Source: an uncultured virus (IMG/VR IMGVR_UViG_2916515220_000006)
Taxonomy: Duplodnaviria; Heunggongvirae; Uroviricota; Caudoviricetes
Direction: 5' to 3' (one strand)
Virus record (IMG/VR): IMGVR_UViG_2916515220_000006
Length of the DNA: 64,000 nt
Of this stretch, positions 5,184 through 61,622 are shown piece after piece; the first letter of the stretch is position 1, and every line of letters starts with the position of its first letter. The position numbers and the translations under genes were made by a program. The notes beneath the pieces were generated by a model. The model was not told the origin of the DNA. It searched no databases and saw nothing but the letters and a program-made list of their open reading frames with translations.

Positions 5184-5230
5184 TGGAGCGGGTGAAGGGA
5201 ATCGAACCCTCGTATTCAGCTTGGGAAGCT
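5184..5230 (-). repeat. att core: 3' 47 nt of tRNA-Gly(CCC), left boundary of prophage 1
   Basis: Reverse complement AGCTTCCCAAGCTGAATACGAGGGTTCGATTCCCTTCACCCGCTCCA gives the anticodon arm (CCC), T-arm and CCA end. The D-arm and 5' acceptor strand are missing. Identical to 47083-47129. Confidence 0.95.
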
Positions 5231-43724: not shown

Positions 43725-44167
43725 CGCCCGAACAGCTTTCCGTTCTCGCCGCCCTGCCGCAACTGGCGCTGTCGGTCCGACAGCCGTGGGTTTACTGCAT
43801 TTTCGAACTCGGCAAGCCGGTTGAAAACCGGACGTGGGCGACGAAGTATCGCGGGCCGGTCTGCATCCATGCCGCCAAGGGCATGACCACGAATGAATGG
43901 TATGAGGGCCTTGATACCGCACGCGAAGCGGCGTTGACCGATATCAGCCTTGCGAAAAAAAAGTTTCCAGCCGGGAAGAATGACCTCCTGCGCGGCGGCA
44001 TCGTCGGAACCGTCGATATCGTGGATTGCGTCACGCGCCACGAAAGCCCGTGGTTCTTCGGTCCCTACGGCTTTGTGCTGGCAAATCCCAAACCCTGCGA
44101 ATTTATCCCGGTCAAAGGCGCACTTGGCTTCTTCGACTGGCGGAAGAATCTTGAGGCCACCCCATGA
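43721..44167 (+). CDS. ASCH-domain protein
   Basis: ALSVRQPW, GKPVENRTW, YRGPVCIHAAK and KGALGFF motifs. Confidence 0.9.
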   Translation: MTPEQLSVLAALPQLALSVRQPWVYCIFELGKPVENRTWATKYRGPVCIHAAKGMTTNEWYEGLDTAREAALTDISLAKKKFPAGKNDLLRGGIVGTVDIVDCVTRHESPWFFGPYGFVLANPKPCEFIPVKGALGFFDWRKNLEATP

Positions 44168-44550
44168 CAGATATCACCAAAGCAGCGAAGAAGCTTATTG
44201 ATTGCGTCGAATTCGACATGAACGGCGCAGGCGGCAAGGGTGGCAACGGTGGCTTGCTGTCCGATACCACCTTGCGCGCCGCCCACGATCTGCGCGTTAT
44301 CATGAGCCGCGAGGCCGTCAGCGCGTGGAAGACGATGGACACCGCGCCCCGAAACGGAACTGTCATTCAGGCGTGGCACACCGTGCACAAATGCCCGATT
44401 TCCATTCTCTGGAATGAGCAAGGCCACGACTTTAACGGCGAGACGCTTCACTGGTTCGAGCGCTCATATACAACCGTGTGGCCGGAGCATGTATTTTCTC
44501 ACTGGATGCCCCTGCCTAGCCAGCCCATGACGAAAGGCGGTGCAGCATGA
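44164..44550 (+). CDS. Hypothetical protein (DUF551-like C-terminus)
   Basis: WKTMDTAPRNGT...SHWMPLP. Confidence 0.7.
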   Translation: MTDITKAAKKLIDCVEFDMNGAGGKGGNGGLLSDTTLRAAHDLRVIMSREAVSAWKTMDTAPRNGTVIQAWHTVHKCPISILWNEQGHDFNGETLHWFERSYTTVWPEHVFSHWMPLPSQPMTKGGAA

Positions 44551-45524
44551 GCGCCGTGACGCCCGAGGCTTCAAACGGCCTTCGCAGCCGCATCGTCGCG
44601 GTACTGCGCGAAGATCGCGACGTGCGGAACATCGGTGCCTTGGCCGACCAATTGGAGACCGCTATCCGTAGCGCCGAACCGGTGGCATGGCTGCGGCACG
44701 GCGAGGAAGCGCCCGTTCAAAATGTGCCGTTTGGCGCCATGTGGATTAGTGACAAAGATGATCCACGCTCCTTTCCGGTCTACGACTGCCCACAGCAGCC
44801 CGCGCCGTCCGTGGCCGTGAAGGCTTTGGAGTGGTCGCCATGGCCCGGAAATGACCAGACAAAGAACGGGCAAAGCGGCAGGCGCATCATGCGGCGCGCA
44901 GACGGAGCAGGCGTGGCTTACTCGCTTGAGCGGGTGGAGCCTCAAAGTGAGTGGTTCTATATCCCTCCGGGTCAGGTAGCGGGCGACTGGTATGTAATGA
45001 AATTCTGGAACGAAGTGGCTGGCCCCTTTAAGACGGACTTGGAAGCGCTGGAATGGTGCAGACAGGACCATGAAACGCGCATTCGCTCCGCCTTCTCCGC
45101 ACAGGTGCAGGACGTGGCGATGGAAGACGTTCTTTTGGAGGTAAAGCGTCAGGTTGAGGTTGAAGGCTGGTCTTCGGATCATGACGACGCTCACGACAAA
45201 GGCGAGATGGCAGGTGCGGCAGCTTGTTACGCCCTTGAGGGGGTGGCCTACACGGCACCTGATCACTATCCGCCGCGAAAGAAATACGCGGCTGTCGTGG
45301 ACGCAAGGAACTCCATTCCCGAAAAAGAACGAGAAACGACCCGCGAGGCAATCAAACTGGCACTTGGAGAACCTGCGGCACCACGAAACTGGCCTTGGCA
45401 TGCGTCTTGGTGGAAGCCGACCACCACGCGGCGTAATCTTGTTAAAGCCGCCGCACTTCTCATTTCTGAGATCAAGCGTCTCGACCGCGCCGCAGCACCC
45501 GCAAATCAGGAGGGCGGCATATGA
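44547..45524 (+). CDS. Mosaic hypothetical phage protein
   Basis: Modules EPVAW, VAVKALEW and RQVEVEGWSSDHDD...WKPTTTRRNLVKAAALLISEIKRLDR. Confidence 0.7.
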   Translation: MSAVTPEASNGLRSRIVAVLREDRDVRNIGALADQLETAIRSAEPVAWLRHGEEAPVQNVPFGAMWISDKDDPRSFPVYDCPQQPAPSVAVKALEWSPWPGNDQTKNGQSGRRIMRRADGAGVAYSLERVEPQSEWFYIPPGQVAGDWYVMKFWNEVAGPFKTDLEALEWCRQDHETRIRSAFSAQVQDVAMEDVLLEVKRQVEVEGWSSDHDDAHDKGEMAGAAACYALEGVAYTAPDHYPPRKKYAAVVDARNSIPEKERETTREAIKLALGEPAAPRNWPWHASWWKPTTTRRNLVKAAALLISEIKRLDRAAAPANQEGGI

Positions 45525-45778
45525 AAAAGCCAACCGCCGAGGACAAGGCAAACGTTCTGCGTTTCTGTTTCGTCGCCCTTACCGCTTTCAGTGAAAACGC
45601 TCTTGGCCCTACTCAAAAGCGATGGGCGCGAGAACGTGCGGAGAATTGCCTATGGGCGCTAAGGGTTGCCGAATTTAAGACTGACCGGGCGACTTACACG
45701 GCTCGCGAGCTTGAAGAAGCCATGATCACTATTGACCTAAAGGCCACCACGCCTTTGACGGAGGCCGGAAATGGCTGA
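45521..45778 (+). CDS. Hypothetical protein
   Basis: Coupled ORF, 85 aa. Confidence 0.55.
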   Translation: MKKPTAEDKANVLRFCFVALTAFSENALGPTQKRWARERAENCLWALRVAEFKTDRATYTARELEEAMITIDLKATTPLTEAGNG

Positions 45779-46001
45779 CCTCGCCCCAACCCCAAAGAAG
45801 AAAAACCGCCGTCCGACGCTTCGAATTCGCGACGTAAACGCTACGCTTGAAGCGCTCAAAAAGAACGGCATGACTCCGACCGCGTTGGACACATTGCCAG
45901 ACGGTACATTTCGATGGCATTTTACGCCACCGGCACAGAACGACGAAGACGATCTGGACCGCGAACTTGCGGAGTTTGACAAGAAGCATGGTTACAGTTG
46001 A
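45771..46001 (+). CDS. Putative excisionase/recombination directionality factor
   Basis: Small protein with a basic N-terminus, overlapping the integrase start. Confidence 0.5.
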   Translation: MADLAPTPKKKNRRPTLRIRDVNATLEALKKNGMTPTALDTLPDGTFRWHFTPPAQNDEDDLDRELAEFDKKHGYS

Positions 46002-47010
46002 GCTAAAGGGCATCCACACCGTACGGGCCAAGGGCAATATCTACTATTACGCTTGGCGCGGTGGCCCAAGGCTCGACGGCCAGCCTGGAACGGCGGCATT
46101 CATGGCATCCTATAACGAAGCCATCGCCAGCCGCATGGAACCCGAAAGCGGACGCTTCCGCTCAATCATCACCCACTACAAGGCAACCGAGTTCAAGAAG
46201 CTCGCCGATTCCACGAAGCGCGTCTGGTCGCCGTGGATTGATCGCATTTCCGAATATTTTGGCAATTTGAGCATTGCGCAGTTCAATCGTGCGGACAAAA
46301 TCCGCCCCCGCATTCGCCAATGGCGCGGGCAATATAGCGAGACCCCGCGCGCGGCAGACACAGGCATGCAGGTTCTTTCCCGCATCCTGTCCCATGGCGT
46401 AGACCCTATGGGAAAGCTGAGCGCCAATCCAGCCGAAGGCATCAAGCATCTTTATAGTTCCGACCGCTCCGAAATCATCTGGACTGACGCAGACATTGCG
46501 CAGGTCAAAGCCGAATGCTCTGACGAGGTGAAATGGGTTATTGACCTTGCCGCCCATACAGGCTTGCGCGTCAGCGATCTGCTGAAACTGTCATGGTCGC
46601 ATGTCGGCCCCGATGCCATCATCATTTCGACCGGCAAGAGCAAGCACAAGCGCGAGGCGATCATACCGCGCTACGACGCATTGAATGAAATTCTTGATCG
46701 CATTCCAAAGCGCTCGCCCGTCATCCTCACCAGCTCCAAAAAGAAGCCGTGGAAGCCGAGCGGATTGAATACGATGTTCTGGCGCGCGAAAGAAAAGACG
46801 AACATGCTTGAGCGCGATTTGCACTTCCACGACCTGCGAGGGACCGCCGCTACAAAATTCTATATCGCGGGCCTGTCGGTCCGCGTGATCGCCGAAATTA
46901 TGGCGTGGGAGGAAGAGACGGTTGAGAAAATTATTCGCCGTTACGTGGGCCGAAATTCCGCCACGAAAGAAATGATCCGGCAGTTAAACGAGGCCAGAAC
47001 GCGAACATAA
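45988..47010 (+). CDS. int: Tyrosine integrase
   Basis: HTGLRVSDL (R), KSK, FHDLRGT (HxxR), IMAW and RRY catalytic residues; adjacent to att. Confidence 0.95.
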   Translation: MVTVELKGIHTVRAKGNIYYYAWRGGPRLDGQPGTAAFMASYNEAIASRMEPESGRFRSIITHYKATEFKKLADSTKRVWSPWIDRISEYFGNLSIAQFNRADKIRPRIRQWRGQYSETPRAADTGMQVLSRILSHGVDPMGKLSANPAEGIKHLYSSDRSEIIWTDADIAQVKAECSDEVKWVIDLAAHTGLRVSDLLKLSWSHVGPDAIIISTGKSKHKREAIIPRYDALNEILDRIPKRSPVILTSSKKKPWKPSGLNTMFWRAKEKTNMLERDLHFHDLRGTAATKFYIAGLSVRVIAEIMAWEEETVEKIIRRYVGRNSATKEMIRQLNEARTRT

Positions 47011-47012
47011 CT

Positions 47013-47036
47013 TGTAAAACTGGCTGTAAAACTGGC
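47013..47036. repeat. Tandem TGTAAAACTGGC x2, putative integrase arm sites
   Basis: Exact 12-bp tandem repeat between the int stop and att; same core as at 5263 and 5311. Confidence 0.7.
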
Positions 47037-47082
47037 CTGTTTTTCGGGGGCAAAAAACGGCGGAAAGCCCTGAGAAATAAGG

Positions 47083-47129
47083 TGGAGCGGGTGAAGGGAA
47101 TCGAACCCTCGTATTCAGCTTGGGAAGCT
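47083..47129 (-). repeat. att core: second 3' fragment of tRNA-Gly(CCC), junction of prophage 1 and prophage 2
   Basis: 47/47 identical to 5184-5230 and also lacks the tRNA 5' half. Confidence 0.95.
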
Positions 47130-47226
47130 TCGAGAACAGCGAGGAAAATCAATGCGACGTGTCATTTCGTTTACCTCGTGTCAGGTAACGAGAGACACGC
47201 GTTTCAATGAAAATTCGGGAAAACAA

Positions 47227-47661
47227 ATGAAGAAAATGACGATCGGCAGCGTGGTGATCTTAGGTCTTTTGTCGTCGGCACCGGCCCATTCTGGCCAAGG
47301 CGTTGCATGTGCATCGCTGGTAGTAATCGACGGCGACACCATCAAATGCGACGGCCAGAACATGCGACTGCTGGGCGGCGGGGTGCCGTTCAAGTCTGGC
47401 GTGGATGCGCCCGAAATGGGAAGCCGTGCCAAATGCGAGTTTGAACGGGATCTGGCGCTGAAGGCAAAGGCCAGGCTGAAAGAACTGCTGCTGGACGGCG
47501 TACCTCGTATCGAGGACAGCGGCGCGAGGGACCGGACGCAAAGCCGCCGACCGCTCGTCAACATCTATCTTCCTGATGGCCGGGAAGCTGGGCAGGTTCT
47601 TATGTCGGAAGGACTGGCGCGAGAATGGCGCCCAAAGCACCGCATTGATTGGTGCAATTGA
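47227..47661 (+). CDS. Thermonuclease (SNase-like) with signal peptide
   Basis: VVIDGDT, RLLG..GVDAPE and GQVLMSEGLAR motifs, DWC C-terminus; N-terminal MKKMTIGSVVILGLLSSAPAHS signal. Confidence 0.88.
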   Translation: MKKMTIGSVVILGLLSSAPAHSGQGVACASLVVIDGDTIKCDGQNMRLLGGGVPFKSGVDAPEMGSRAKCEFERDLALKAKARLKELLLDGVPRIEDSGARDRTQSRRPLVNIYLPDGREAGQVLMSEGLAREWRPKHRIDWCN

Positions 47662-47868
47662 TCTGCACATACCTTAAGGGGGGTGCAGACTTCGGCGCGA
47701 ACGCGCCAGAGTTCAATCCGCTCAATTGTGCGGCTTGATCTCAAAAGGGCAAATTTGCCCGATTGGGAACTTGTGGACAATCGTCCCGAAGTTCAAACCC
47801 AGAATTTCTGGGACTGATCAAAGTGCCCAATCGGGCACATTGAACTTCCGGCCAATCGGCAGGAAGTT
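47662..47868. repeat. Array of eight abutting, sequence-diverse 25-28-bp palindromes
   Basis: Dyad centres at 47675, 47700, 47725, 47753, 47780, 47805, 47830 and 47855. Outer arms TCAA..TTGA or AACTT..AAGTT; centres mostly AATC/AATT. Confidence 0.9.
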
Positions 47869-47909
47869 GAGAACCCGCTGGTAGTACGAGGCTGCCGACG
47901 GGTTTTCTC
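47869..47909 (+). terminator. Intrinsic-terminator-like hairpin closing the array
   Basis: AACCCG-C-TGGTAG-loop-CTGCCG-A-CGGGTTTTCTC; convergent with the stop at 47912. Confidence 0.6.
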
Positions 47910-47911
47910 TA

Positions 47912-48544
47912 TCAGCTTCCCGGTGAGGCCTTCTCACGCTCCATGCGGTCTACCCGCTGGCGAAGGTCTAGGATCACATCGCGCGCGCCATACACACTTG
48001 TCTGAGCCTGCTTCAGTTCATCAAGCTGGCGCTGTTGGTCCGCATCGGTGTTCGCTTGGCTGGTCCATACTCGTTCAAGCTCGGCGCGGGGGACTTGGGC
48101 CTCCCTCACCTCTTTGACGGACGCCTCCATTCGGGCCCGGTCTTCTGAACCGCGCGCGGTCCGCCACTCCATTTCCTTCTGCGTCACCATCTTGTCGACA
48201 ACAGCCGTGATCGCTGATTGTGCCGTTTCCGCGTTCTTCGCGACGATGAGATCAAGCCGATCCTGCCCCTTGCTCAGGCTGTTGTAGAAGAAGGCGCCGC
48301 CGGTCGCGAGAACGGTAAAGCAGACGCCGGCCGCAGCCCAGATAACTGGCCACTGCGTCTTGCTCGAATTCCGAAGCTCATTCGACAGTTGCGAAATACT
48401 GGTGTTTATCGTCTGAAACCCGGTGTTCATGTTCGACCGGAGATCGACAATGTCCTTGCCCTGGTTCTCAACCCGCTCGGATAATCGAGCATATTGGGCC
48501 ATTGGATCGAAGCCGTTGCTGCTCATCTCTTGGTTTCCTGCCAT
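47912..48544 (-). CDS. Coiled-coil single-TM membrane protein
   Basis: Coiled coil, then TQWPVIWAAAGVCFTVLATGGAFFY TM, then coiled coil; last gene of the late operon. Confidence 0.7.
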   Translation of the reverse strand: MAGNQEMSSNGFDPMAQYARLSERVENQGKDIVDLRSNMNTGFQTINTSISQLSNELRNSSKTQWPVIWAAAGVCFTVLATGGAFFYNSLSKGQDRLDLIVAKNAETAQSAITAVVDKMVTQKEMEWRTARGSEDRARMEASVKEVREAQVPRAELERVWTSQANTDADQQRQLDELKQAQTSVYGARDVILDLRQRVDRMEREKASPGS

Positions 48545-48602
48545 TATCCCAGCCTGCATGCGAGTAAAAGAAAGCCCCGGCCACAGGTCGATGGGGATGA
48601 TT

Positions 48603-50255
48603 TCAGAGCGTGATAATTGAGCCGCCGACGATGGCGCCATTATTTGCGCTTGCGATGGTCGCCGGCAGCGTGGAACCGGTGGCGTTCACAGCGTCCCATT
48701 CCTCAACAAGCCCACTGGTCACGTCTGCCTCAGAACTACCAAGACCAGCCCGAGCAAAGCGACTGGCAACTTCAGAAGGTGTCAGGGCGCGATTGTACAG
48801 CCTTGCCAGAGAAACGCGCTGGCGCGACATCTGGACCGGTGCGCCCGCATTGTAGGCAGCGCCAAGGATCATGCGATGACCCGCTTGCCCGTCGATGTTC
48901 GGTTGACCGTTGATGGCGACCATATCAAGGGCGCGCTGGCGCACCAGCTGTCCGTTGCGATATAGCATCCACCCGCCCGATCCGTCGTGTGTGGCGAGCC
49001 AATGGATCAAATTGCCATAGTCTGGAATGAGACCTGTTCGGAACGGGTTCAGGATGTTTGTTGACGACGTTGCGAAGTCCATGCGGTCAGAACAGCCAAC
49101 GGCCATGATAGGGCCGCTCCAGTTCCCGGCAAGGCCAACCCAACCTATAGCGCCCATGAATAGCGACTGCTGAAGCGCGGATACCGACGTGCTTGCCCCG
49201 CGCCACATCATGACGCTGGCGTTGGCGCGGGTGGTCGGCTCGATACCGCCCATCCACTCCATCGACATGGCGCCGTCGATTACCAGGCTGTTGTCAGTGC
49301 CGCAGTTGATCCATGACGTTGTGCCGCGCGCAGAAAGCAAAACGGCTTTCTTGCCGGATTTCTTTACCGCAGGGGCCGCGATTGGCGTTTCGGCATGGTC
49401 ACGGAAAGCAATGACGACATAGGTTGCTGTGTTGACGTTCAGCGCGGAACCGGCGGTGAGCTGGAGGCCATCCGCGTCGAATGAGATACCGGACGCCACA
49501 ATTCCGGCCGCCGCAGACATTTGCTTCGCGCCACTGGCTGACATGGTGTCTGTTTTGATCCATGCAGCCTGAAGCGTGCCACTCAGTTTTGCGACGATGA
49601 CGGCTTTCGGCTGGAACCCGAGACTGACAGCGCGGTTTGCACCGGAACCTGTGTAAGCGGCCGTGGCGAAGTTCGCGCCGCTCTCAAAGCCGATGAAGTC
49701 AATCCCCTCGCCCAGCTCCTGCGCCGCGTCATATTCGTTGACATAGCCTGAAGCCGATACCGTGCACTGGCCTGTCGTCAGATTGGTGATTGCCCCCGAT
49801 TCCGTCAGCGCCGTTCCACCGAGTAGTGCGGTGGTAGAAGACCCGACCTGAAGAACCCCATCGCGCGTGCTGTCCCGCTTGGCGATCACGGCAGCGAGGT
49901 TAATCATGCTGTCATCGAACTTGATCGCCCGGCTGGCAATGGCGTTGCCCTGCGATCCTGCAAGGGCCATCTTCAGCGCGGCAGAGCGCGATATGGCGAG
50001 GTGGTGATAGGTGATGTCCTGATCGTTCCACTTGGGCGATTGCGAGACGGTAAAGCCGTCCTTCGTGAGTGTGGCACCATCTGCATAGCTGTTCGATGCG
50101 CCCAGCACGTTTGTCCGTCCGGCCCAGAGGTCATGCAGTTTGATGCCAACCATCTTCGGAGCATCGGGAATGCAAATGACGACTTCCGGTTTCCAGCCGA
50201 TGGAGACGCTGCGCCGCGAGCCGTTGCCAACCGAAGTTCCTGTCTTGATGCTCAT
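48603..50255 (-). CDS. Beta-rich virion/receptor-binding protein with C-terminal LamG-like domain
   Basis: Repeated YTGSGANRAVSLGFQPKAVIV-type modules; LamG-like HWLATHDG..LYRNGQL..ARLYNRALTPSEV. Confidence 0.7.
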   Translation of the reverse strand: MSIKTGTSVGNGSRRSVSIGWKPEVVICIPDAPKMVGIKLHDLWAGRTNVLGASNSYADGATLTKDGFTVSQSPKWNDQDITYHHLAISRSAALKMALAGSQGNAIASRAIKFDDSMINLAAVIAKRDSTRDGVLQVGSSTTALLGGTALTESGAITNLTTGQCTVSASGYVNEYDAAQELGEGIDFIGFESGANFATAAYTGSGANRAVSLGFQPKAVIVAKLSGTLQAAWIKTDTMSASGAKQMSAAAGIVASGISFDADGLQLTAGSALNVNTATYVVIAFRDHAETPIAAPAVKKSGKKAVLLSARGTTSWINCGTDNSLVIDGAMSMEWMGGIEPTTRANASVMMWRGASTSVSALQQSLFMGAIGWVGLAGNWSGPIMAVGCSDRMDFATSSTNILNPFRTGLIPDYGNLIHWLATHDGSGGWMLYRNGQLVRQRALDMVAINGQPNIDGQAGHRMILGAAYNAGAPVQMSRQRVSLARLYNRALTPSEVASRFARAGLGSSEADVTSGLVEEWDAVNATGSTLPATIASANNGAIVGGSIITL

Positions 50256-50983
50256 GCTGCGAACTCCAGTTCGACTGTCCCGGTTGATTGCGTCTGCTTC
50301 CGAAGACTGATCTTGTCGAAGCAGCCAGTAACGCCGGCCGACGCGGAACCCGCGATGGTGATGCTCGTTGCTGCGGCGACAAACGAGGTGACAATCGGAA
50401 GCAACTGCCCTGCCGACACGTTGGCCGATCCATAAATCTGACCGGTGGAAGAACCGGCCGTGTCTGTCGTCAGGCGGCACGAAATAGAATTCGCGCTCGG
50501 CTCCAGCATTGTGGCGCGGAAAACATAGGTTTCGCCAATCTCAAGGCCGGACACGGTTTGCGTTGCGCGACCGCCGCCCGAGCCGCCGAACAATTCCATC
50601 TTTCCATCGCGCCATGTGATGGTTGCCCCGGTAAGTTGCGGTGCCCAGCCGGAAACGTCAGTGTTGAAATTACCGTTGGTGACAAGTTCCGGCCCAAGAG
50701 CGGAGGTCATGTCGACATAGACGCCGTTGATGATGGGGAGATCGACGGATGCTTTCTCGCCTGTCGCAAGCGCGCCCTGATACGGCATGATGCCAGCGCC
50801 CGCGAAAGGGCTGTCGTAAATAGAGACCAGCGGCGGAGAACCTGACGCGACCTTGACCGAAAGAAGACGACCGGGAGAGATGATCGCAACGCCGGAATTG
50901 GTGATGGGCACGGTAAAGCGCTCAGCGGCGCGACCGGGCTTACCAGCCCCAACAAGAGCAAGACCGTTTCCAAGCCACATCAT
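50252..50983 (-). CDS. Carbohydrate-binding-module-like protein
   Basis: GPELVTNGNFNTDVSGW...QTVSGLEIGETYVF...FDKISLRK (CBM4/9-like pattern). Confidence 0.65.
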   Translation of the reverse strand: MMWLGNGLALVGAGKPGRAAERFTVPITNSGVAIISPGRLLSVKVASGSPPLVSIYDSPFAGAGIMPYQGALATGEKASVDLPIINGVYVDMTSALGPELVTNGNFNTDVSGWAPQLTGATITWRDGKMELFGGSGGGRATQTVSGLEIGETYVFRATMLEPSANSISCRLTTDTAGSSTGQIYGSANVSAGQLLPIVTSFVAAATSITIAGSASAGVTGCFDKISLRKQTQSTGTVELEFAA

Positions 50984-51267
50984 TGTGCAATTCTCCGGTT
51001 ATAGTCGTCTGCCCATGCCTGGCAGTCTCTGGCCAATTGGTCGCGGTTGTCGGCGGCGACGTTCCAGCGGAAGGAATGAACCACCCACGGCTCGTCGCGG
51101 AGTTTCACACGCTCCATAAGTGCGGTGCAGGCGGCGGGAAGAACGAGAACCGGCTGACGAGCGGCATTTTCGCCCTTGACGACGGATGCGGCCTTGAGGC
51201 GCTCCTTGTCGGTCTGGCATCCGGTCAGCGCGATTGCGGCGATCAGGATTAGCGCTCGGATAGCCAT
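50980..51267 (-). CDS. o-spanin lipoprotein
   Basis: IALTGC lipobox; overlaps the i-spanin 3' end. Confidence 0.75.
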   Translation of the reverse strand: MAIRALILIAAIALTGCQTDKERLKAASVVKGENAARQPVLVLPAACTALMERVKLRDEPWVVHSFRWNVAADNRDQLARDCQAWADDYNRRIAQ

Positions 51268-54241: not shown

Positions 54242-57200
54242 TCATTTCGACTTGCCCATGATGTATTCCAAGGGCGAGACATCTTCGCCTTCGGCCTGCC
54301 GCCACGTCGCATCGACGAAGCGATTTATTTGGGTGGACGGCATATGCAGGAACAACCCGCCCGCATCGACGAGGGATCGAATGAACGCCTTGTCCACGTC
54401 TCCTTGCGATGCCTGGAAAAGCGGTCTGGCAATCGTGTCCATGATCGAGCCATAGGCACCGCCGCCACTGAAGCCCTGCACGGCGCTCGCGGCGTCGCGG
54501 ATAAAGGGCAGCGTTCCCGCCGCACTGAGAGCGGTTTGCTTGGCGAGGAATTCCGCCCAGCCGTCTTCCTCATCATCGTCGTCGCCCCATGGCAGCTGGC
54601 CCCGGACCAGCGCCGCAAGGACAGCTTCGACCGTGAACAGCATGACCATGTCGGAGGTCCATGACAAAACTTGCCGAGGATCTCGGAATTCAGTCTGCCG
54701 TGTCTTTTCGTAAGCGACGTTGAACTTCGCGAACATGTACGAACCGAGTGCCGTGAAAAGCCTCACGACGTCGTTCTGCCGAACGCTGCGCGACAGGGAG
54801 CCGCGTTCGATCGGGGTCCGGTCCGAGAAGTTGCCCGAGGCCGCAGCGCGCGCCACGATGCGGTCAGCGTGCGCAATGGCGTCGGCTTCTCCCTTGCCCT
54901 CATCAAGCGCCTGTCTGTAACCGGCAAGCCACGTTGGCATGTCCACCGTGTAAAACTGCGCCTTCTGCATCAGCCAGAAGCCCCACGGCGCGAGATAATC
55001 GCTTGTGAACTGCGACACCCGGTTTTGCGACGGACCCGCTCTCACCTCTCCAAGGATGTCATAAACATCTTTGTTGAAGGTGGTTTCGCGCTCACGCATG
55101 AAAGGCGACTTATCGATGATGATGCTGGCTGCGCTTCCCGGCCCGCTCAGAGGCCGGCGGAAGACATCCTGCATACCCAGCAGCATATTCTTCTTACCGA
55201 CCACGACAAACGACTGTGCGATGCCTGTAGGCTGCAACAGGACCGTTGTAAGGTTGAAGGCCAGCTTCGACACCGTGAAGCCAGACTTAAGCTTGCGAGC
55301 CCACCGGTTCATGAAGTCAGCGCCACGGACCTCCCCGCTTGCCACGTCCTGCAACCATACTTCGAGCGCATCGAAGTCCGATTTCATTCCGCGATCGAGG
55401 AAGGCGCTTTTCACTTCATTGTTCTGCAGGATGCGCCACGCGTTTGCGACGACTTCCGACAGTGCCAGGTCGTGCATCACCTGATTGACGTGGCCATGAA
55501 GGACGCCGATATCGATGAGCACCGGGCGACCCGAGGAGTTCGAACGTTCCTTTGTGTGTCCGTTCTTCGTCTGGGCCTTACCAAAGCGACCGCCGGTCAT
55601 TGAGGCCGCAAGGTCATGAAGATCATCATCGCGAGCGAGAGACGAAATCTCGGCATCATATTTCAGCGGATAATAGCCGCCTTTGAATGTGCCGAACTTG
55701 GTCTGCACTTCACGAGCAGCTATCTTTTCAGGCGCGACGCCAGTAACGCGCTTTTCGCGAGCTTCGATTTCAGGCCAGTAGCCGTCAATCAAATCCCAAG
55801 CCGACTGGACGAACTTCCAGTCACGAGCATCGAGGCGGGAAAGAGCCATGTCGATCTGACCTGGCGTGAAGTGGCCCTTCACCCGCAGGTCGGTCAGACG
55901 CTGGAAGTTGCCTTCGTTGCCGACATTCAGCGCCAGCGAAATCAGATCCCACTTCGAGAACTGTCCATTCAATTCCGGAATGGATTGCAGCCGCGTCATC
56001 GAACGGCGCTCTTCCTTCGAGTAGACGGAATACAGATTTTCGAAATCCTCGCCCGCTTGGCGTCGCTTCACGGTCAGTTCGTTGACGGCCTCGTCGATGG
56101 GTGCCTTGATATGGCGATATGCGGCACCATCCTTGAAGCCGTCGATTTCACGCAAGATGGTGTCGGCTGTCTTTACGAGATTGAGATAGCTTCGGAAGCC
56201 TTCCTTTGCCCCCCTCTACCCGACTTCGCACGAGACGGCGCGCTGCCCTTCACGTTTTCGTCGAACTCGGCAACGATATCACTGACGACCGCATCCAACT
56301 CCCTTTCGCGCTTGGCATCCTTCAGTCTCTGCTTAAGACGAGCCGTGTGTTCGATGTTCTTCAAGGTGTCGACAATGCCGCGGAGTTCTTCGACTGAAAG
56401 CTGTTTATACGGCCGGCGGCGTGCGTCCTGTACAACGCTGTCAGGGATCGACAGCTCGTTCTCCCGGCCTTCCGCCTTCATCCGGTCGACATAGGCCAGC
56501 AGGGAGCCACGGCGCTGTTCGGCATTCACCGAAAGCTTCCGGAAGTCGTAACGCTCAAGCAGTTCGTCGATCGCTTCCAGATAATCCCCGGCAAGGTTCT
56601 GACGAGTGGACCGCTTGCCCAGCTTCGAAACGAACCGTTCCGCCTTCTCCACTTCCTCTGCCGCCTTGACGCTTTCGGCATAAAGCATGTGGTTCATAAG
56701 CTGCCGGCGCTTCTGCTCGACGAGAAGCGAGACGGCGTCGTTATATCGATCGGTCGAAGCGTTTGCGCGTTCGGTCGCGCTATTGGCGGCCCGCAGCGAG
56801 CCATTGCGGACGGCGGATTGAACATCCCGGCGACGCTGGCGAGACCACAGGTTTTCGCGTTCGACAAGGCGAGCGAGCTTGATAGCCTCATTGGCAGCCT
56901 TTCTTTCGGCCGTCAGGAAGCGATTGCTGTTGATCGCATCACGAACCTGCATTCGGCTCACGGTGAGCCTTGCTGCCTCTCTGGCCTGCGCCACGGTCGT
57001 GTTGGGCGAGGTGTCACCCGCCCGCGCCTTGAGCACCTTCAATTCGGCCGCAAGGAACTGTGCCCGCTTGTCATTGTGGAACGCGTCCAGTGCTCGCTCT
57101 TCGATTTGGCCATCACGCATGACGTCGCCGTGGCGCTCGCGCATAACCCGATCAGTCTCAGCGTCAATCGCCTCACGGCGCAGTTGCGCTTTCTCAAGCG

Positions 57201-60200
57201 AATGGACGAGAGCGTCGCCGCTCTCGAAGCCGAACCACCCGGCAACCTCATCAGGGTCCATACCGCCTTCGTTGGCATAGAGCGTGAAACGGCCCCTTGG
57301 CAGGGTTTTCAAAACACCTTCCCCGTAACGGTCGACGAGCATCTGTCGATCAAGGCGCATGTCCGGCAGGCCGTCGGGAGTTTCGCCGCCCAGCCAGCGG
57401 CGATTGCCGAGCCATTCCCACGCACGATAGACCGGCGTGCGGTTGATCTGTTCCGCGACCTCGTCACGAACCTTGCCCTTCTCCTCCTTGAACCAGCGTT
57501 CAGTCTCACGCTTTATCGGCGCCATGATCTCCTGACGCAGCTTTTCGTTGGCAGCATCGACGGACTGGTCGTGCAGCTTCACCAACTGGCGATAGTCATT
57601 TGGCGACAGGCCTGCGGCATCCGCAGCGGCGAAGAGCATATCGTCAGACAGATCGGACCGGGCGGCCTGAATTTCTTCATCAGTCGCCAGCATCCGGTCA
57701 AAGACCGTCCTGATTTCCGGCGAGATGCTTACGTTCAAGCCACGGAGCGTTTTGTAAAGGCGCATCAGCCATTGAGCGAACCGTTCGAAGGCGGATCGAA
57801 GTTCGATAGACGGCGCCTTGCCTTCCATCACATAGGCTTCGAAGCCACGGGCAAACTGTTCATGCATGCCCACCTCGACCGCCCGGTCGATAGCCGCGTC
57901 ACCGGACGTGCCATGCTGGATGACATCGCTCACGTTCTGAGCCGAGACTTTCAGGCCAGTCGCCAACGTGGCGTCGGTAGCGACCGCTTCCGCATTGTCG
58001 CCCCACCATGTCCGTACGGCGTCATGCATCTCCTGAATGTCCGGTCCCATCGTCCGCAGGTCTTCCAGCGTGAAGAGGAAGTAGTGAGCGGATTCGTGGA
58101 TGGTCGTGGACAGGTCAGCGCTTTCGAAGAGGCTGATGATGACCGAGCTTTCGGAAGCGCCAGCCAAAGGCAACTGGATAGAACCACGCCTCTGGCCATC
58201 CCCTTGTTGAAAATACTGGCGAATGCGCGGAGGGATTCCGAGGGAGCCGTAGCCATCGCGCTCATCGCTTACAAAGGATGAAAGGCCTTCCATGTCGGCC
58301 TGCGCGATTGACATCGACTTACCGTCGTAAACAAGAGATGGCGCGCGCTCCATCAGTTCTTGCCACTCACCATCATTGCCTTTGATGCTATCGAAGTATT
58401 CGACCTCTTTCTTGGTCAGCACTAGCGACGCGCTTTTGCCGTCGGTGGCCCAGATAAGTTTTTCTTTCCGGGCGCCGCTCTGAAACAGAGTCTTGGAGTT
58501 TGCCGGAACATCGGTTATTGTCACCTCATTCCCGCCATCGTTTCGGACGTTGGGACTGATGGTTTTAGCAATGCTAGAATAGTCACTCGTGGCGGGATAT
58601 TTTCTCATCGAAACAGCTGCCAGCGCCTTGCGACCACGTCGAGCCTCTTCGATGTAGAGCGTCGTGCCGTCGTCGAGCTTCTTCAGGTAGCCCACAAGCT
58701 CCTCTCCCCGGCGGCCTTTGGCACCGGTGACAATCTTGTCAGCCGAAGCAATCATATCGGGAATACCAACTAGATCCTCTTCGGTGATAGGCACCATGCC
58801 GCGCGCGGTTTCCTTGCCCGCATCGCCGTGGTTTTTCAGGATGTGGCGGATTGCCGAACTGTCGATCGTATGGCGATAGCCGTGAATATCGAGACCAGTC
58901 TGCTGCTCGACGATATCTGCGATAGCATCCGATACCTGCGCAATCTCAACCACCTGAGATTCGCCACGCGGCGCAGTTTGCGAGAAAGACACCAGATCGG
59001 TAAGTGACTGGCGCAGCTTCGCCAGCTTCTGCCGCAGCGTCGCCTGGCCGAACGTCCTCCCATTCTCGGCTTCTGCTTTCTCCAGCGCTGCACGAATGAC
59101 GTCGTCAGCGTCATCGAGCGTGACGCCCAATTCGTTCAGATACGCGACATTGCGTTCCATCGTCGCGGCGCGTTCATCGATCTGGGCTTCGCCCGCATAC
59201 TGGACGTTGCCCCGAAGCTCTTCATCGATCGCCTCCAAAAGGGCTTTGCCGATGTCCGGAACTTCAGTGCCGTTTTCCAGCGCAGCGCGGTATTCAATCG
59301 CGACGGGGTTGTCCTGCAAGTAACCAGCATCAAGCATAGCCTGAGCGACATCATCAATGCCGTGCTTTTTGCCATCCGCACCGCCGAACATATCCTTGAC
59401 GCCATCGACGATACCCCCGCGCGCAAGGCGCAGCGTCTTTTTGCCCTTGCCGCGTTTGATGACTGCAGCGTCACGGGATTTCAGTTCCCCGCCGACGTCA
59501 TTGATACCGCCGTACTCGGAAATGGCTTCCAGCAACGAAGGACCATTGTTGACGGTCTTCGGGATGTAGGAGCGCATTTCCGCAAGCTGGCGCGTCAGCT
59601 GGTCGACGTTCTTCGGCTGAAGACCTTCAGGGACGGCCCCGCGCACCAGCGGCAGCGGGTTCCGCTGGGCAAACTCTTCCTGCGTCATGCCCGAGCGTGC
59701 AGCCATGGTCCTGCGCATCGCGATCAACGGCATGGCCTCGAAACGGGCAACATCTGTGGAACGGCCGGCAGCGCGGAGACGGCCAATCATCTCGTCCAGT
59801 TCCTGCACGTCAAGCGACCGCTCGCTTTCATCAGCGATCCGGGCAGCTTCCGATTCCTCGAAGGCTTCCATCTGGATTTCAGAAGCCCGAGCGTTGAATT
59901 CCTGCGCTTCAGCAAACGTCATCGCATCCGGCGAAAACCGCATGTTCTCGCGAAGGAAGACATCGAAATCAGAACCGGCGAGCTTTGCCGCATAGGTGGC
60001 GGTCGGAATGCGGATGTCGCCGCCCGTTGCAAGAGCAGTGTCCCAATCAGCAACATCGACACCGGGGAGCTCGCCAAGGAACTCCGAGGGGTCGTAGCGG
60101 TAGCTCTGGAAGAGTTCCTGCATCTTCTCCGCGGGAACGAACACATCCTGAATTGGAGTGCCTTCTGTCGCCTTGCCCACGAAGTCCATGAACGAGCCGT

Positions 60201-61551
60201 CGAGACGCTGGCGGAGCTTCGATACTGAGGCTTTGTCGCCAAGCTCGTCGATCAAGCCTTTCGCTTCTTCGGCGCCGCGTGAGGATGAGCGGTCTTTCAC
60301 AAACTTCCGACCAGCCATACCCATGTCAAACGGCGTGGACGCTATTTCCGCCAAACCTTCTGCGATGATTTCATTCCAGTCGATCTCCTGACCGGCCGCT
60401 TTTCTTGCGGCATACTCGCCCAACGAGCCGTTTACGGCTTGCTGAGCCGACTGCGCTAAGGCTTCAGCAATGGGATTTCTCGATAACGCCTTACCGGCAA
60501 GGCCAAATGAAAGCGCGTCAAATGCCGAGATGACGGCGCCTCTGATCACACCCCTGTCATTAGCCTCTTTCAGCAGCGACGGGTCAGACAGGAGTTTTTC
60601 AATGCCTTCAGCCTTTCCAAGGTCAACGCCTTTTTCAGCCAAAAAATCAGACGGAGCCGTGTAGCGTTCGGTTGCGTAGCTAGCGCTCATGCCAACTGCG
60701 CGTCCCAAGGTGGGATTTTTTGTCGCCGACGTTACCGCGATACCCAAACCAACTTGAGGAGCGAATTCCCCCATCGTCTCCATCGCCCAAGAAAGTACGC
60801 CAAGCGGGTTTTCCAAGAACGCCGAGCCGACATTCTGGACAACGGCGCCCAAAGAAGAGGAAGCCTCGTCTTTGAACATGCTCGTTTCGGCCTGCGTCGC
60901 GAGCCCCGATTTCGGAGTTGATTTCAACGCCGCCACGTTCGCCGCAAGTGCGCCGGCGTATTCCCGCGCTGCGCCTTCGTCGTCCGTGCCAATCAGGTCC
61001 GCATAACGCGCATCGATGTACCTTGCGGATGCAGAGACGATATCACTCAAGTTGATCCACGGGCGCACGTTACCAGCAGGCGTTTGGATGGTTTCGCGTT
61101 CGCTATCCAGTATCTCACCGAACGACATTTCCCGATCCTGCGCGCGGCCGGCGGTCTGGTTCAGCATGTACTGATTACGCATCTGATCCAGCCTATAGAC
61201 GGATCGAGCCAAAGTGTTACGCGCGCCCCTTGCGGCACCTTCAAACCAAGACATATTTTCAACATCGTCCCAAGATGCTCGGGCGTTGTCGGCATCTTTC
61301 AGCCACTGAGCAGTACGCGGTGATCCTTTGAGAATGGAGGTGTTCCGGAGGCTGTCCATGCGAGTTTGCAGCATGTCCCTGCCAGCATTCGCCAGATCCG
61401 CGCTAAGTCCAAACGCCTTCCCCAACTTGACGTCCGATGCGAATGCATCCGGGTCCACCTTGCGAGCATTGTTCAGGATGAAGTCTGTGGCGCCGACGCT
61501 TGCAGCTTCCTGCTTCGTCTTCCAGGCGTCGTATTCCTCTAAGGTCGGCAT
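54242..61551 (-). CDS. Giant (~2400 aa) internal virion/polyvalent protein with PBECR-like nuclease and zincin metallopeptidase (frameshift at 56209-56214)
   Basis: The 1801-aa and 637-aa ORFs join if one G is added. IDSSAIRHILKNHG..PITEEDLVGIPDMI..YIEE..AVSMRK (PBECR3-like); ADLSTTIHESAHYF..HEQFARGFEAY (HExxH plus E); GGYYPLKYD. Confidence 0.75.
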
Positions 61552-61622
61552 CTGCGCTCCGTGAAATAATCTCGACAAAAAGCGGACAATCTGTTTGTCT
61601 GGCCCAAATATTGGGGGCCAGC

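Follow-up and report, generated by a model that had tools for sequence, protein, structure and literature searches.

Among the closest described counterparts of the locus studied here are the enterobacterial REP/BIME clusters, in which imperfect palindromes of 20-40 nt stand head to tail in a 3′UTR, often between convergent genes, with alternating orientation or type and a copy number that differs between strains. The array described below resembles them in all these respects, being a cluster of head-to-tail, hairpin-forming palindromes outside genes. It differs from them in other respects. REPs are scattered as hundreds of copies of a common consensus and are associated with RAYT, whereas the stems of the array all differ, the array is present at one locus without a Y1 transposase, and it belongs to a phage lineage rather than to the host. 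A search for RAYT (Y1 transposase, PF01797) gave 0 matches in the array's own genome; the control search matched 6 of 14 named genomes.

The host genome also carries a dispersed element of ~115 bp with four hairpins, which we take to be a Rhizobiaceae intergenic mosaic element (RIME-like). In this element as in the array, GC-rich hairpins that differ from one another and have A/T-rich loops directly adjoin each other, and both occur in the same host. The element is, however, a composite of fixed structure framed by a large inverted repeat, whereas the array lacks such a frame and varies in steps of whole units, and no sequence common to the two was found. A scan for hairpin runs yielded 34 runs of four or five hairpins; among the 14 longest, 13 were this ~115-bp element or a close variant.

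RNAs of the CsrB/RsmZ type are free-standing sRNAs with a constant GGA loop motif for CsrA. The array is like these sponges in having many hairpins of the same build with differing stems, in a number that varies between relatives. Unlike them, it has variable loops and would be a 3′UTR, not a free-standing sRNA. Integron attC sites have conserved R and L boxes with extrahelical bases, cassettes between the sites and an IntI integrase nearby; in the array the units abut without spacers, and there are no gene cassettes between them.

The moron architecture of temperate phages has been reported as promoter, gene and terminator (PMC3594210). As in morons, the locus has an accessory gene beside an att site, its own stem-loop terminator and mosaic flanks. 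Morons are described with a single terminator, whereas here 2-9 hairpins are stacked, and here the module is kept when the gene is swapped, at loci baited with the module.

Location of the array in a tandem prophage

The host genome has 5.86 Mb in nine contigs and is 100% complete. The window (the whole stretch analysed, 64,000 nucleotides of IMG/VR record IMGVR_UViG_2916515220_000006) contains the first and part of the second of two prophages that lie in tandem at tRNA-Gly(CCC). The array lies in the second, a BPP-1-like podovirus prophage, ~0.5 kb inside attL, in agreement with the prophage-edge position proposed in an earlier sequence-only reading. The features of the locus are as follows.

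5184-47130: prophage 1
47131 to ~90.9 kb, running past the window end: prophage 2, which bears the array
47083-47129, - strand: att core of 47 bp, the 3′ part of tRNA-Gly(CCC), at the junction of prophages 1 and 2; an identical 47-bp copy is at 5184
47152-47661, + strand: SNase-like (thermonuclease family) moron gene, stop codon TGA at 47659-47661
47912-48640, - strand: terminal gene of prophage 2's convergent late operon (242 aa), without family, different among the module alleles

No complete tRNA was found within the window; the complete tRNA-Gly(CCC) is on the complementary strand of contig C1 (1758079-1758152). The two integrases present are of the phage type, each beside an att site.

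The SNase ORF matched the Pfam SNase family with E of 0.002, under the curated cut-off, and matched PHROG endonuclease families. Its homologues in Rhizobium phages carry an SNase-like nuclease annotation. The true start of the gene is likely ATG at 47229, ahead of a signal-peptide-like N-terminus.

At this location a putative + strand transcription unit (early/integrase side, attP and moron) converges on the late operon of the - strand at its end. Judging from the tandem-prophage layout, int, attP, the moron and the module would follow one another on the same strand in the circular form. A scan of 46900-48100 gave no promoter-like site.

The array was absent at 8 loci in other genomes that carry homologues of the 242-aa late gene. 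At one locus beside such a homologue (G140), a tRNA and a small gene occupy the place of the array. The Mesorhizobium phage vB_MseS-P1 lacks the array although the integrase and the late gene are common to both.

Anatomy of the array

Eight imperfect palindromes stand back to back at 47662-47868, the first beginning 1 nt past the SNase stop. Each of them (U1-U8) was recovered as an inverted repeat in a repeat search of 47500-48000, and their coordinates and letters agreed with the sequence-only reading. The same search recovered a ninth hairpin at 47869-47907 that was absent from that reading. The units fill the entire space from the SNase stop to this + strand hairpin with a U-tract, beyond which the next gene converges on the - strand. 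The hairpins, all on the + strand, are listed here with their folding energies and their relatives in other alleles.

47637-47655, + strand: H0, a hairpin in the last SNase codons, helix 1 in alignment A1, where 96% of cells pair and one G·U is invariant
47662-47689, + strand: U1 (H1, allele B), first hairpin past the stop, -12.4 kcal/mol
47689-47712, + strand: U2, A-type (ACTT...AAGT arms), -12.2 kcal/mol
47713-47738, + strand: U3, T-type (TCAA...TTGA arms), -9.4 kcal/mol, resembling unit 2 of L154 and L158
47741-47766, + strand: U4, T-type, -10.5 kcal/mol, without a counterpart among the other alleles recovered
47768-47793, + strand: U5, A-type, -8.9 kcal/mol, resembling the commonest single unit (L151 type)
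47793-47817, + strand: U6, T-type, -9.3 kcal/mol, without a counterpart among the other alleles recovered
47818-47843, + strand: U7, T-type, -13.9 kcal/mol, resembling unit 3 of L154 and L158
47843-47868, + strand: U8, A-type, -13.4 kcal/mol
47869-47915, + strand: intrinsic-terminator-like hairpin (47869-47907; 16 pairs, predicted 5-nt loop), then TTTTCTCT

The unit centres are 24.5-28 bp apart. The hairpins share a common build: an AU-rich outer stem of 3-5 bp, a small symmetric internal loop, a GC-rich inner stem of 4-6 bp and an A/T-rich loop of 3-4 nt. The stem letters differ between units while pairing is kept, which supports the earlier proposal of one structural class with differing self-complementary cores. 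The loops seen were AATC, AATT, GATT, GACT, GAAC, AGCT and ACTA, and many centres are themselves palindromic (AATT, AGCT, CAATTG, AAATTT). No U-tract was present in U1-U8.

Pairwise alignment separated two classes, A-type (U2, U5, U8) and T-type (U3, U4, U6, U7), in the order A-T-T-A-T-T-A from U2; the alternation of AACTT, TCAA and TCAA arms noted earlier was thus correct. The earlier statement that the array is no tandem duplication held at the level of TRF, which returned 0 rows, although the blocks U2-U4 and U5-U7 share 48 of 73 aligned positions.

Folding energies of the individual units ranged from -8.9 to -13.9 kcal/mol, with z between -2.8 and -5.1. The terminator-like hairpin is more stable (-24.1 kcal/mol, z -4.6). 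By folding, 47869-47915 shows the GC-rich hairpin and trailing U-tract of a Rho-independent terminator, but a simple terminator scanner made no call on the hairpin (47869-47907). The hairpin forms helix 4 of alignment A1, in which 97.7% of cells pair, three U·G pairs are invariant and two pairs alternate between G·U and G-C, and it is the conserved 3′ anchor of the module. For the region 47630-47915, the predicted + strand RNA folded at -136.7 kcal/mol, compared with -89.5 ± 5.6 in 200 shuffles, none of which folded as well (z -8.4); for the - strand RNA the value was -123.5 kcal/mol (z -7.4).

We scanned the nine contigs for hairpin centres with 11-nt arms, at least 9 of them paired, and a loop of 0-5. 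Centres occurred at 0.8-1.6 per kb across the contigs. The array was the densest 230-bp window of the whole genome, with 7 centres. Elsewhere the maximum was 5, found at four loci. One of these is in an apparently coding stretch, and the remaining three are intergenic palindromes, nested mosaic or otherwise.

Alleles with one, four and seven units

We recovered 20 distinct alleles of the module between the stop codon and the terminator. Seventeen are short (105-111 nt, with lengths of 105, 106, 107, 109 and 111) and have one unit, and two (L154 and L158) have 180 nt and four units. The window allele, of 259 nt, has seven units in addition to the first hairpin. The unit numbers of 1, 4 and 7 therefore indicate growth in three-hairpin blocks (T-T-A), and the gain or loss of whole units in related prophages, which the earlier reading had proposed as a check, was observed. 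When only the 3′ end of the SNase gene was used as bait, the same H1-unit-terminator module was found at 12 of 13 evaluable loci.

Contigs from individual runs gave the same picture. Relative to the window, those of one run skipped 207 letters and carried 53 inserted, and those of another skipped 147 and carried 68 inserted, which again corresponds to the classes of 105 and 180 nt. In a third run the contigs had the full array with 1 difference.

No allele lacked H1, of which there are two main sequence forms. U1 of the window is identical to H1 of L156, and a 97% match to U1 over 30 nt was found in another genus (G377). The three A units of the window each resemble the single unit of a different allele. 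U2 resembles that of L155 and L156, both of which also have H1 allele B. U5 resembles the L151 type with the 2x2 internal loop inverted relative to the loop. U8 resembles that of L152, L157 and L174 and also the unit that closes the arrays of L154 and L158; the stem changes among these are compensated. The earlier suggestion of independently acquired modules fits this pattern, as expected from assembly from separate sources. Among T-type units, the loop of U7, AATC, is replaced by its exact reverse complement, GATT, in L158 and by GACT in L154. The flip of the U7 loop and the inverted internal loop of U5 both fit template switching.

The 17 short alleles have a hairpin of constant size and build at one place despite at least five unrelated stem sequences. 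H0 was kept where the rest of the SNase gene was deleted or replaced (L174, L188, L194, L187, L175 and pMK-3). The hairpin-terminator module was also kept where SNase was swapped for another gene; these loci were baited with the module sequence, so the estimate of module retention after SNase loss is biased. The sequence downstream of the module is not the same among alleles.

Pairing conservation and strand bias

Covariation was tested on the 17 single-unit alleles against 500 shuffles. Paired cells made up 90.8% (87.4 ± 0.5 in shuffles), cells changed on both sides numbered 20 (8.3 ± 2.1), and the covariation score was 0.146 (0.095); none of these values was reached in any of the 500 shuffles, a support that is overstated because the alleles are related to one another. 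With slid partners, pairing was found in 33-47% of cells. Two of the five covariation measures were not above the shuffles, namely pairs changed on both sides (6 compared with 4.6, reached by 124 of 500) and further pair types (19 compared with 18.7, reached by 289 of 500). Examples of compensated stems are CCCGCC/GGCGGG in L154, CGCGCC/GGCGCG in L158 and CCGGGC/GCCCGG in L157.

On the + strand, 90 cells were G·T and 13 were A·C. By helix, these counts were 17/0 in H0, 14/10 in H1, 7/1 in the unit and 52/2 in the terminator, so that the bias of H1 is weak. Among 29 distinct units, G·T outnumbered A·C by 15 to 4. The + strand RNA was predicted to be the more stable in 15 of the 20 alleles, with 2 ties and 3 opposite cases. 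The strand bias fits a putative + strand RNA, and the positive GC skew of the region could add G·T cells.

Mean pairwise identity (91 pairs among 14 alleles) was 0.66 for the unit with its linker, 0.77 for H1 and 0.79 for SNase third codon positions. The primary sequence of the unit is unconstrained and drifts faster than third codon positions.

Searches for copies and rejected identities

No copy of a unit was found elsewhere in the array's own genome with up to 4 mismatches, by BLAST, by arm pattern or with a covariance model. A dispersed host repeat was thus ruled out, as the earlier reading had held in setting the array apart from REP clusters. INPHARED phages gave one match, at chance level (E = 3), and the sole match among PLSDB plasmids was a remnant of the same locus. 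A scan of genome contigs returned one locus. Eight loci came from metagenomes, one of which (L176) was a chance match without the module. In IMG/VR, T-type units were found only in the two four-unit alleles. A scan of IMG/VR with the A-type pattern gave at least 117 stretches; among those listed, only L142 is a relative and the rest are chance matches.

Several known types of element were considered and rejected. As the earlier reading had also concluded, this is not a CRISPR array: there is no constant direct repeat with spacers, the units abut, TRF gave 0 rows, and direct repeats are only 8-11 nt in two copies. A protein-coding reading was ruled out by the lengths of the short alleles, since these differ by 1-6 nt, not by a multiple of 3. 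A type III toxin-antitoxin RNA (ToxI-like), in which near-identical tandem repeats, a terminator and a toxin gene follow one another on one strand, does not agree with units that are unlike each other and a next gene on the opposite strand. The array is not part of attP, as it starts ~530 bp from the core with a gene between. The likeness of the prophage to BPP-1 suggested a DGR target hairpin, but no reverse transcriptase was found in 32 further prophage ORFs or in 47-64 kb. No Rfam family reached its gathering threshold in 44000-51000; the only two matches were at chance level (Leu_leader, 23.1 bits against 50; sR28, 19.7 bits against 39).

A structured 3′ tail as the preferred explanation

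Starting from the anatomy, uniqueness, allele series, pairing conservation and strand bias observed here, we tentatively favour the explanation that the array is a lineage-specific structured 3′UTR that would act like a REP/BIME cluster and would have been shaped by recombination and template switching. Its transcription, its role as stabiliser or insulator and its mutational route are what we infer. A structured RNA tail is most likely when compared with a library of protein-binding sites.

The + strand transcript would include the upstream moron gene (here SNase) and the array. Its tail would consist of H0 in the last codons, H1 (U1) past the stop, 1, 4 or 7 hairpins of 23-26 nt and the intrinsic terminator. 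Such a fully folded tail would block 3′-to-5′ exonucleases and Rho loading, and we propose that the upstream message would therefore be stabilised. The tail would also help to stop antisense run-on into the converging operon. There is a precedent in REP325, a REP cluster in an E. coli 3′UTR that has been reported as a terminator and mRNA stabiliser; the same source reports that genes with REPs between them in convergent orientation are both more highly expressed (bioRxiv 10.64898/2026.03.23.713779).

Arrays would grow from one to four to seven hairpins by unequal recombination between alleles, in T-T-A blocks. Compensatory change would keep the pairing, partly by replication template switching, which also inverts loops. 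Template switching has been reported to create stems and multibase compensatory changes (PMC8794818) and to homogenise the arms of inverted repeats and invert spacers (PMC8604942).

Two observations are not accounted for by a structured tail. Palindromic centres are unnecessary for an RNA loop and point to a process at the DNA level. A tail of one hairpin is evidently enough in most alleles, so the seven units of the window are left unexplained.

If the structured-tail explanation is true, temperate phages of Rhizobiaceae would own a private equivalent of REP/BIME, a transcript-end module in which all hairpins differ in sequence and which grows by discrete blocks of three hairpins. The 1-4-7 series, with its loop flips and compensated stems, would be a compact natural record of how hairpins are made, kept and multiplied, on which the template-switch model could be tested in bacteria. 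The array also offers a testable system for the number of hairpins needed to protect a message or to insulate converging operons.

Alternative explanations

The array might be a functionless by-product, in which template switching perfects palindromes in a non-coding spacer and unequal recombination stacks them, so that only the terminator and perhaps one hairpin matter. We regard this as possible but doubtful. Loop inversions and arm-symmetric double changes, which are reported footprints of template switching (PMC8794818, PMC8604942), are present here. Many centres are perfectly palindromic, the short form suffices in 17 of 20 alleles, and mosaic elements with several hairpins abound in the host genome itself. 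The divergence of the units (0.34) is ~1.6 times that of third codon positions (0.21) and does not exceed the twofold value to be expected if arms copy each other. However, the 17 short alleles keep the hairpin in the same build and place and hold the module length at 105-111 nt. The conserved outer arms, the position of the internal loop and the fixed A-T-T-A order are unexpected from random switches, and the excess of G·T over A·C is specific to one strand.

The tail might instead be an RNA decoy or sponge, or a precursor of small hairpin RNAs, whose common build (outer arms, internal loop and A/U-rich loop) is read by a nuclease or hairpin-binding protein from the host, from this phage or from a competing one; extra hairpins would titrate more of it or widen the specificities. 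This is unlikely, although a uniform build with differing stems recalls the multi-hairpin sponges of CsrB/RsmZ type, the copy number differs among relatives, and the window joins three A-type units found singly in different alleles. The AU-rich junctions could serve as RNase E-type cleavage sites, and the strand bias is compatible with RNA. On the other hand, no obvious RNA-binding protein was found among the prophage genes read, the variation of the loops argues against a loop-reading protein, and there is no single-stranded stretch for base-pairing with targets.

In a bolder form of the decoy explanation, which we consider quite unlikely, the array would be a collection of hairpin 'specificities' open to expansion, with each A-type hairpin as the allele-specific partner of an RNA-binding protein or nuclease of phage or host. 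The array of the window would stack the hairpins of three lineages, joined by T-type linker pairs, and would thereby serve as decoy, sponge or immunity factor towards more than one competitor or defence at a time. Fast stem turnover under a fixed build would then be the signature of an arms race, not of drift, and phage conflict would involve an RNA decoy of a new kind.

Action at the DNA level, through duplex palindromes or extruded cruciforms, is very unlikely. Binding or decoy sites for dimeric proteins, crossover sites for a recombinase and an element for replication or partition would all agree with the dyad symmetry, A/T-rich centre and 26-bp size of each unit and with the frequent palindromic centres, and loop flips would be neutral in a double-stranded site. 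Eight different cores, however, could not be read by one protein. No core recurred at operator-like places in the array's own genome, including both prophages, or in the public phages and plasmids searched (INPHARED, PLSDB). These searches gave no support to the earlier proposal of decoy or sensor sites for DNA-binding proteins. No match was found inside an antirepressor or other DNA-binding gene, and neither the proposed donor cassettes for a gene segment nor the suggested resemblance to Rha, Ant and KilA-N genes found support. The strand-specific G·T excess is unexpected for duplex sites, internal mismatches at fixed positions weaken a duplex site and are usual in RNA hairpins, and no recombinase or partition gene adjoins the array.

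Retroregulation on the principle of lambda sib, in which read-through transcripts from int across attP in the circular phage would gain a nuclease-sensitive tail and shut down int, which in the prophage is separated from the module, would agree with the same-strand order deduced for the circular form but is highly improbable, because the module lies ~0.5 kb and one gene beyond att rather than adjoining it, its hairpins of 10-12 bp are shorter than the usual RNase III duplexes, expansion to seven units would be left unexplained, and in the neighbouring prophage the integrase has a terminator-like site of its own ahead of att.

Position of the array between two prophages

Two unrelated prophages, a contractile-tail phage (prophage 1) and a BPP-1-like podovirus (prophage 2), lie in tandem at tRNA-Gly(CCC). 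The 47-bp att core, which is the 3′ part of this tRNA gene, has copies at 5184 and 47083. The complete gene is found only at the far right end (contig C1, c[1758079-1758152]; ~90.9 kb in window coordinates), and a tRNA search found no whole tRNA gene in the 64,000-nt window. Prophage 1, between the att copies, carries genes for lysis, contractile tail, head, replication and immunity. Rightward from 47130, prophage 2 carries the SNase moron gene on the + strand, the array, and then - strand genes for a 242-aa protein, fibre-like proteins, an endolysin, a tail protein, a 637-aa protein and an 1801-aa polyvalent protein. The 637-aa protein has matches over 90-100% of its length in Bordetella BPP-1, Xanthomonas CP2 and related podoviruses; Caulobacter podoviruses share it as well. 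Farther right are a T7 gp14-like protein, a head-tail connector, a CI-type repressor, a KilA-N protein and a tRNA-adjacent 417-aa ORF. This layout and the att copies therefore place the array ~0.5 kb inside attL of prophage 2. Judged from the layout, its place in the circular phage would be the junction of a + strand unit (early side, int, attP, moron) with the end of the - strand late operon.

45967-47010: prophage 1 integrase
47022-47047, + strand: terminator-like hairpin with T-run, directly after the prophage 1 integrase and before the att core
47152-47661, + strand: SNase ORF, ending in TGA; the first unit of the array, U1, begins one base later
56173-61578, - strand: 1801-aa polyvalent virion protein with LPD22 and PBECR3 (Barnase/EndoU/colicin E5-D/RelE-like nuclease) domains; the 637-aa protein follows

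A very long open frame of at least 1714 aa (1-5145, + strand), incomplete at the left end of the window, stops 39 bp before the prophage 1 att core. Its sole match is a short PHROG hit, phrog_15773.

A dense cluster of hairpins

The sequence-only reading had described eight palindromic units, U1-U8, and all of their letters and positions agree with the sequence. Each was recovered by an inverted-repeat search, which also returned a ninth hairpin at 47869-47907 and a long-range inverted match between U5 and U8. In folding, all units are built alike, with 3-5 AU-rich pairs in the outer stem, an internal loop of 1×1 or 2×2, a GC-rich inner stem of 4-6 pairs, and an A/T-rich loop of 3-4 nt (wider in U3, up to 8 nt). 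Folding energies were -8.9 to -13.9 kcal/mol for individual units and -24.1 kcal/mol for the ninth hairpin. As + strand RNA, 47630-47915 folds at -136.7 kcal/mol (z -8.4; none of 200 shuffles equal), and as - strand RNA at -123.5 kcal/mol (z -7.4).

Hairpin centres (11-nt arms, at least 9 pairs, loop 0-5 nt) were scanned in the nine contigs of the genome, where their background was 0.8-1.6 per kb. The array, with 7 centres, was the densest 230-bp stretch in 5.86 Mb; the maximum elsewhere was 5, reached by four loci. Three of these are palindromes between genes, nested mosaic or of other kinds, and the fourth is in sequence that appears to be coding. The clustering is far above chance.

The host genome also has a dispersed, RIME-like mosaic element of ~115 bp, in which a large inverted repeat encloses four different hairpins. 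Copies lie at C2:370841-370950, C1:133884-133999 and C2:1897480-1897566, among further places. This element or a close variant accounted for 13 of the 14 longest hairpin runs (the best 14 of 34 runs of four or five hairpins). It has no sequence kinship with the array.

Repeat and tandem-repeat searches agree with the earlier view that the array is neither a CRISPR nor a tandem duplication. It matches no Rfam family. A dispersed host repeat was rejected, as BLAST, the arm pattern, a fuzzy unit search and a covariance model gave no other genomic match; the units have no second copy in the remainder of prophage 2 (47131 to ~90.9 kb) or in the rest of the genome, prophage 1 included. The suggested unit-by-unit search of other phages gave one chance-level match in INPHARED and, in PLSDB, only a remnant on plasmid pMK-3. 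The ORFs scanned in prophage 2 included no reverse transcriptase, so that a link to a DGR is unlikely.

Alleles with one, four or seven units

Homologues of the 242-aa gene at 8 loci in 400 family genomes had no array beside them; in one genome (G140) a tRNA and a small gene occupy its place. In IMG/VR, the structural pattern of the A-type units (ACTT...AAGT arms; U2, U5 and U8) gave one true relative among at least 117 stretches, and its flanks were then used as bait. The last 19 nt of SNase led to 14 loci. The putative terminator, which is the ninth hairpin, led to 9 and then 14 viral loci plus one species genome (Agrobacterium pusense LMG 25623), and in metagenomes to 8 loci, one a chance match. 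In a genus sample, 3 of 48 genomes matched, our own counted, and the module (the stretch from stop codon to terminator) was present in one other. Among 13 evaluable loci baited by the SNase end alone, 12 had the module; the remaining one, L167, differs after the stop.

The 47 loci gave 20 distinct alleles. Seventeen are short (105, 106, 107, 109 or 111 nt), with H1 (the first hairpin after the stop, U1 in the window), one unit of 23-26 nt, a short linker and the terminator. In L163 and L186 (IMGVR_UViG_3300034072_000829), two hairpins of 17-19 nt with a shared GGAAATTCC centre replace the single 26-nt unit, the total still being 111 nt. Two alleles, L154 and L158, have four units in 180 nt each, and the window allele has seven units after H1 in 259 nt. 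A contig of another run spans 47613-47932 with one difference. Contigs from two other runs skip 207 nt with 53 inserted, giving the 105-nt class, and 147 nt with 68 inserted, giving the 180-nt class. The lengths of the short alleles differ by non-multiples of 3, and a coding reading was therefore rejected.

The length steps of 73 and 79 nt correspond to three hairpins each. With T-type units (TCAA...TTGA arms; U3, U4, U6 and U7), the four-unit alleles run A-T-T-A, and the window runs A-T-T-A-T-T-A. Whole units are thus gained or lost across related prophages, as the sequence-only reading had suggested looking for. A and T units are separated by pairwise alignment scores, and blocks U2-U4 and U5-U7 are identical at 48 of 73 aligned positions. 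Each A unit of the window is akin to one that is solitary in other alleles: U2 to that of L155 and L156, both of which carry the window's form of H1; U5 to that of L151, the commonest type; and U8 to that of L152, L157 and L174. U3 and U7 are akin to units 2 and 3 of L154 and L158, and U4 and U6 are so far unmatched. Relative to L154, the window thus looks as if U4-U5-U6 had been inserted between U3 and U7, with a different first unit.

The converging gene downstream varies between alleles. In L174, L188, L194, L187, L175 and pMK-3, SNase has been deleted or replaced, with its last 20-90 nt retained; the use of module sequence as bait for the loci means that this retention is no evidence of selection.

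Pairing is kept while sequence turns over

Covariation was analyzed in the 17 short alleles, on a structure of 39 pairs that we named as H0 (a hairpin within the last SNase codons), H1, unit and terminator. Against 500 shuffles, whose counts overstate the support because the alleles are related, paired cells made up 90.8% (87.4 ± 0.5 shuffled), 20 cells were changed on both sides (8.3 ± 2.1) and the covariation score was 0.146 (0.095); no shuffle reached any of these values. Slid partners were paired in only 33-47%. Pairs with two-sided change (6 vs 4.6 shuffled; 124 of 500 reach) and further pair types (19 vs 18.7; 289 of 500) were not outstanding.

For example, the stem of the last unit is CCCGCC...GGCGGG in L154 and CGCGCC...GGCGCG in L158, two alleles with five differences in a 133-nt module. 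It is CCGGGC...GCCCGG in L157 and CCGGCC AGCT GGCCGG in L174; the U8 and L152 versions have one mismatch each. Over 91 pairs among 14 alleles, mean identity was 0.90 in the last 300 nt of SNase (0.79 at third codon positions), 0.77 in H1, 0.66 in unit plus linker, and 0.89 in the terminator, part of which the bait had held constant. The unit's primary sequence is therefore no more constrained than silent sites; the hairpin persists all the same.

Signals of RNA and of DNA

G·T is a wobble pair in + strand RNA, and A·C wobbles only on the opposite strand. Paired cells had 90 G·T and 13 A·C (H0 17/0, H1 14/10, unit 7/1, terminator 52/2); G·T was ever seen in 15 of 39 columns and A·C in 7. The 29 distinct units of all alleles had 15 and 4. 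The + strand RNA was more stable in 15 of 20 alleles, with two ties and three in reverse, and only on the + strand is the last hairpin followed by a U-tract. These features point to a + strand RNA, with the caveats of a weak strand bias in H1 and a positive local GC skew; further, a scan found no promoter-like site, and a simple terminator scanner did not call the last hairpin.

Many unit centres are themselves palindromic (AATT, AGCT, CAATTG, AAATTT). The U7 loop AATC appears as GATT, an exact inversion, in L158, and U5 is the L151 unit with its 2×2 internal loop inverted relative to the loop. The palindromic centres and the two exact inversions speak for a process at the DNA level. Polymerase template switching between inverted repeats is reported to homogenise arms and invert the spacer (PMC8604942). 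In RNA genes, template switching reportedly gives rise to stems that pair perfectly and to compensatory changes of several bases (PMC8794818). In our view, template switching is the mutational mechanism that maintains and alters the hairpins rather than the reason for their presence. That the array is nothing but a by-product of template switching and recombination is unlikely, yet the strongest of the alternatives.

Possible working of the array

The array is real, clean and unusually informative on hairpin evolution; its function is putative. Our tentative preference, at somewhat below even chances, is for a structured + strand 3′UTR whose behaviour resembles that of a REP/BIME cluster. With the tail folded all the way from stop codon to terminator, 3′ exonucleases and Rho would have no single-stranded entry. 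The moron message might thereby be protected, and transcription hindered from entering the converging late operon. Unlike stems could keep neighbouring hairpins from mispairing and recombining, and the short conserved arms AAGTTCAA, TTGATCAA and TTGAACTT may be where unequal exchange between alleles enlarges the array. Nothing in the present data explains the advantage of seven hairpins over one.

Among described systems, REP325 of E. coli comes closest. This REP hairpin cluster is reported to be both terminator and stabiliser, and REPs located between two convergent genes are reportedly associated with raised expression of the pair (bioRxiv 10.64898/2026.03.23.713779). The array lacks the defining features of REP/BIME, namely dispersal, consensus and RAYT, but its working, on present evidence, would be most like theirs. 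No Y1 transposase was found in the genome. The literature on tandem stem-loops in prophage morons and on Agrobacterium prophage palindromes, as far as it was accessible, contains no description of the array.

Other roles seem less probable than this structured 3′UTR. The + strand signals would also suit an RNA decoy, sponge or precursor, but we consider such a role improbable. An array of sites acting at the DNA level, which the palindromic centres might suggest, is more doubtful still. A sib-like retroregulator of int is the least credible of these roles.

Partial copies

The pMK-3 remnant of the same prophage end, found by BLAST (L209; CP041206.1, 2320-2560), is on a 520-kb conjugative plasmid of Rhizobium sp. 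It consists of the att-proximal arm, only the last ~40 nt of SNase, H1, one unit and the terminator hairpin without U-tract. The allele-B hairpin of H1 (U1) was also seen in another genus (L028; G377:C13, ~1500-1530), with 97% identity over 30 nt. The gene whose 3′ end holds this copy appears to be truncated, and the other parts of the module are missing; several further palindromes lie less than 250 bp away.
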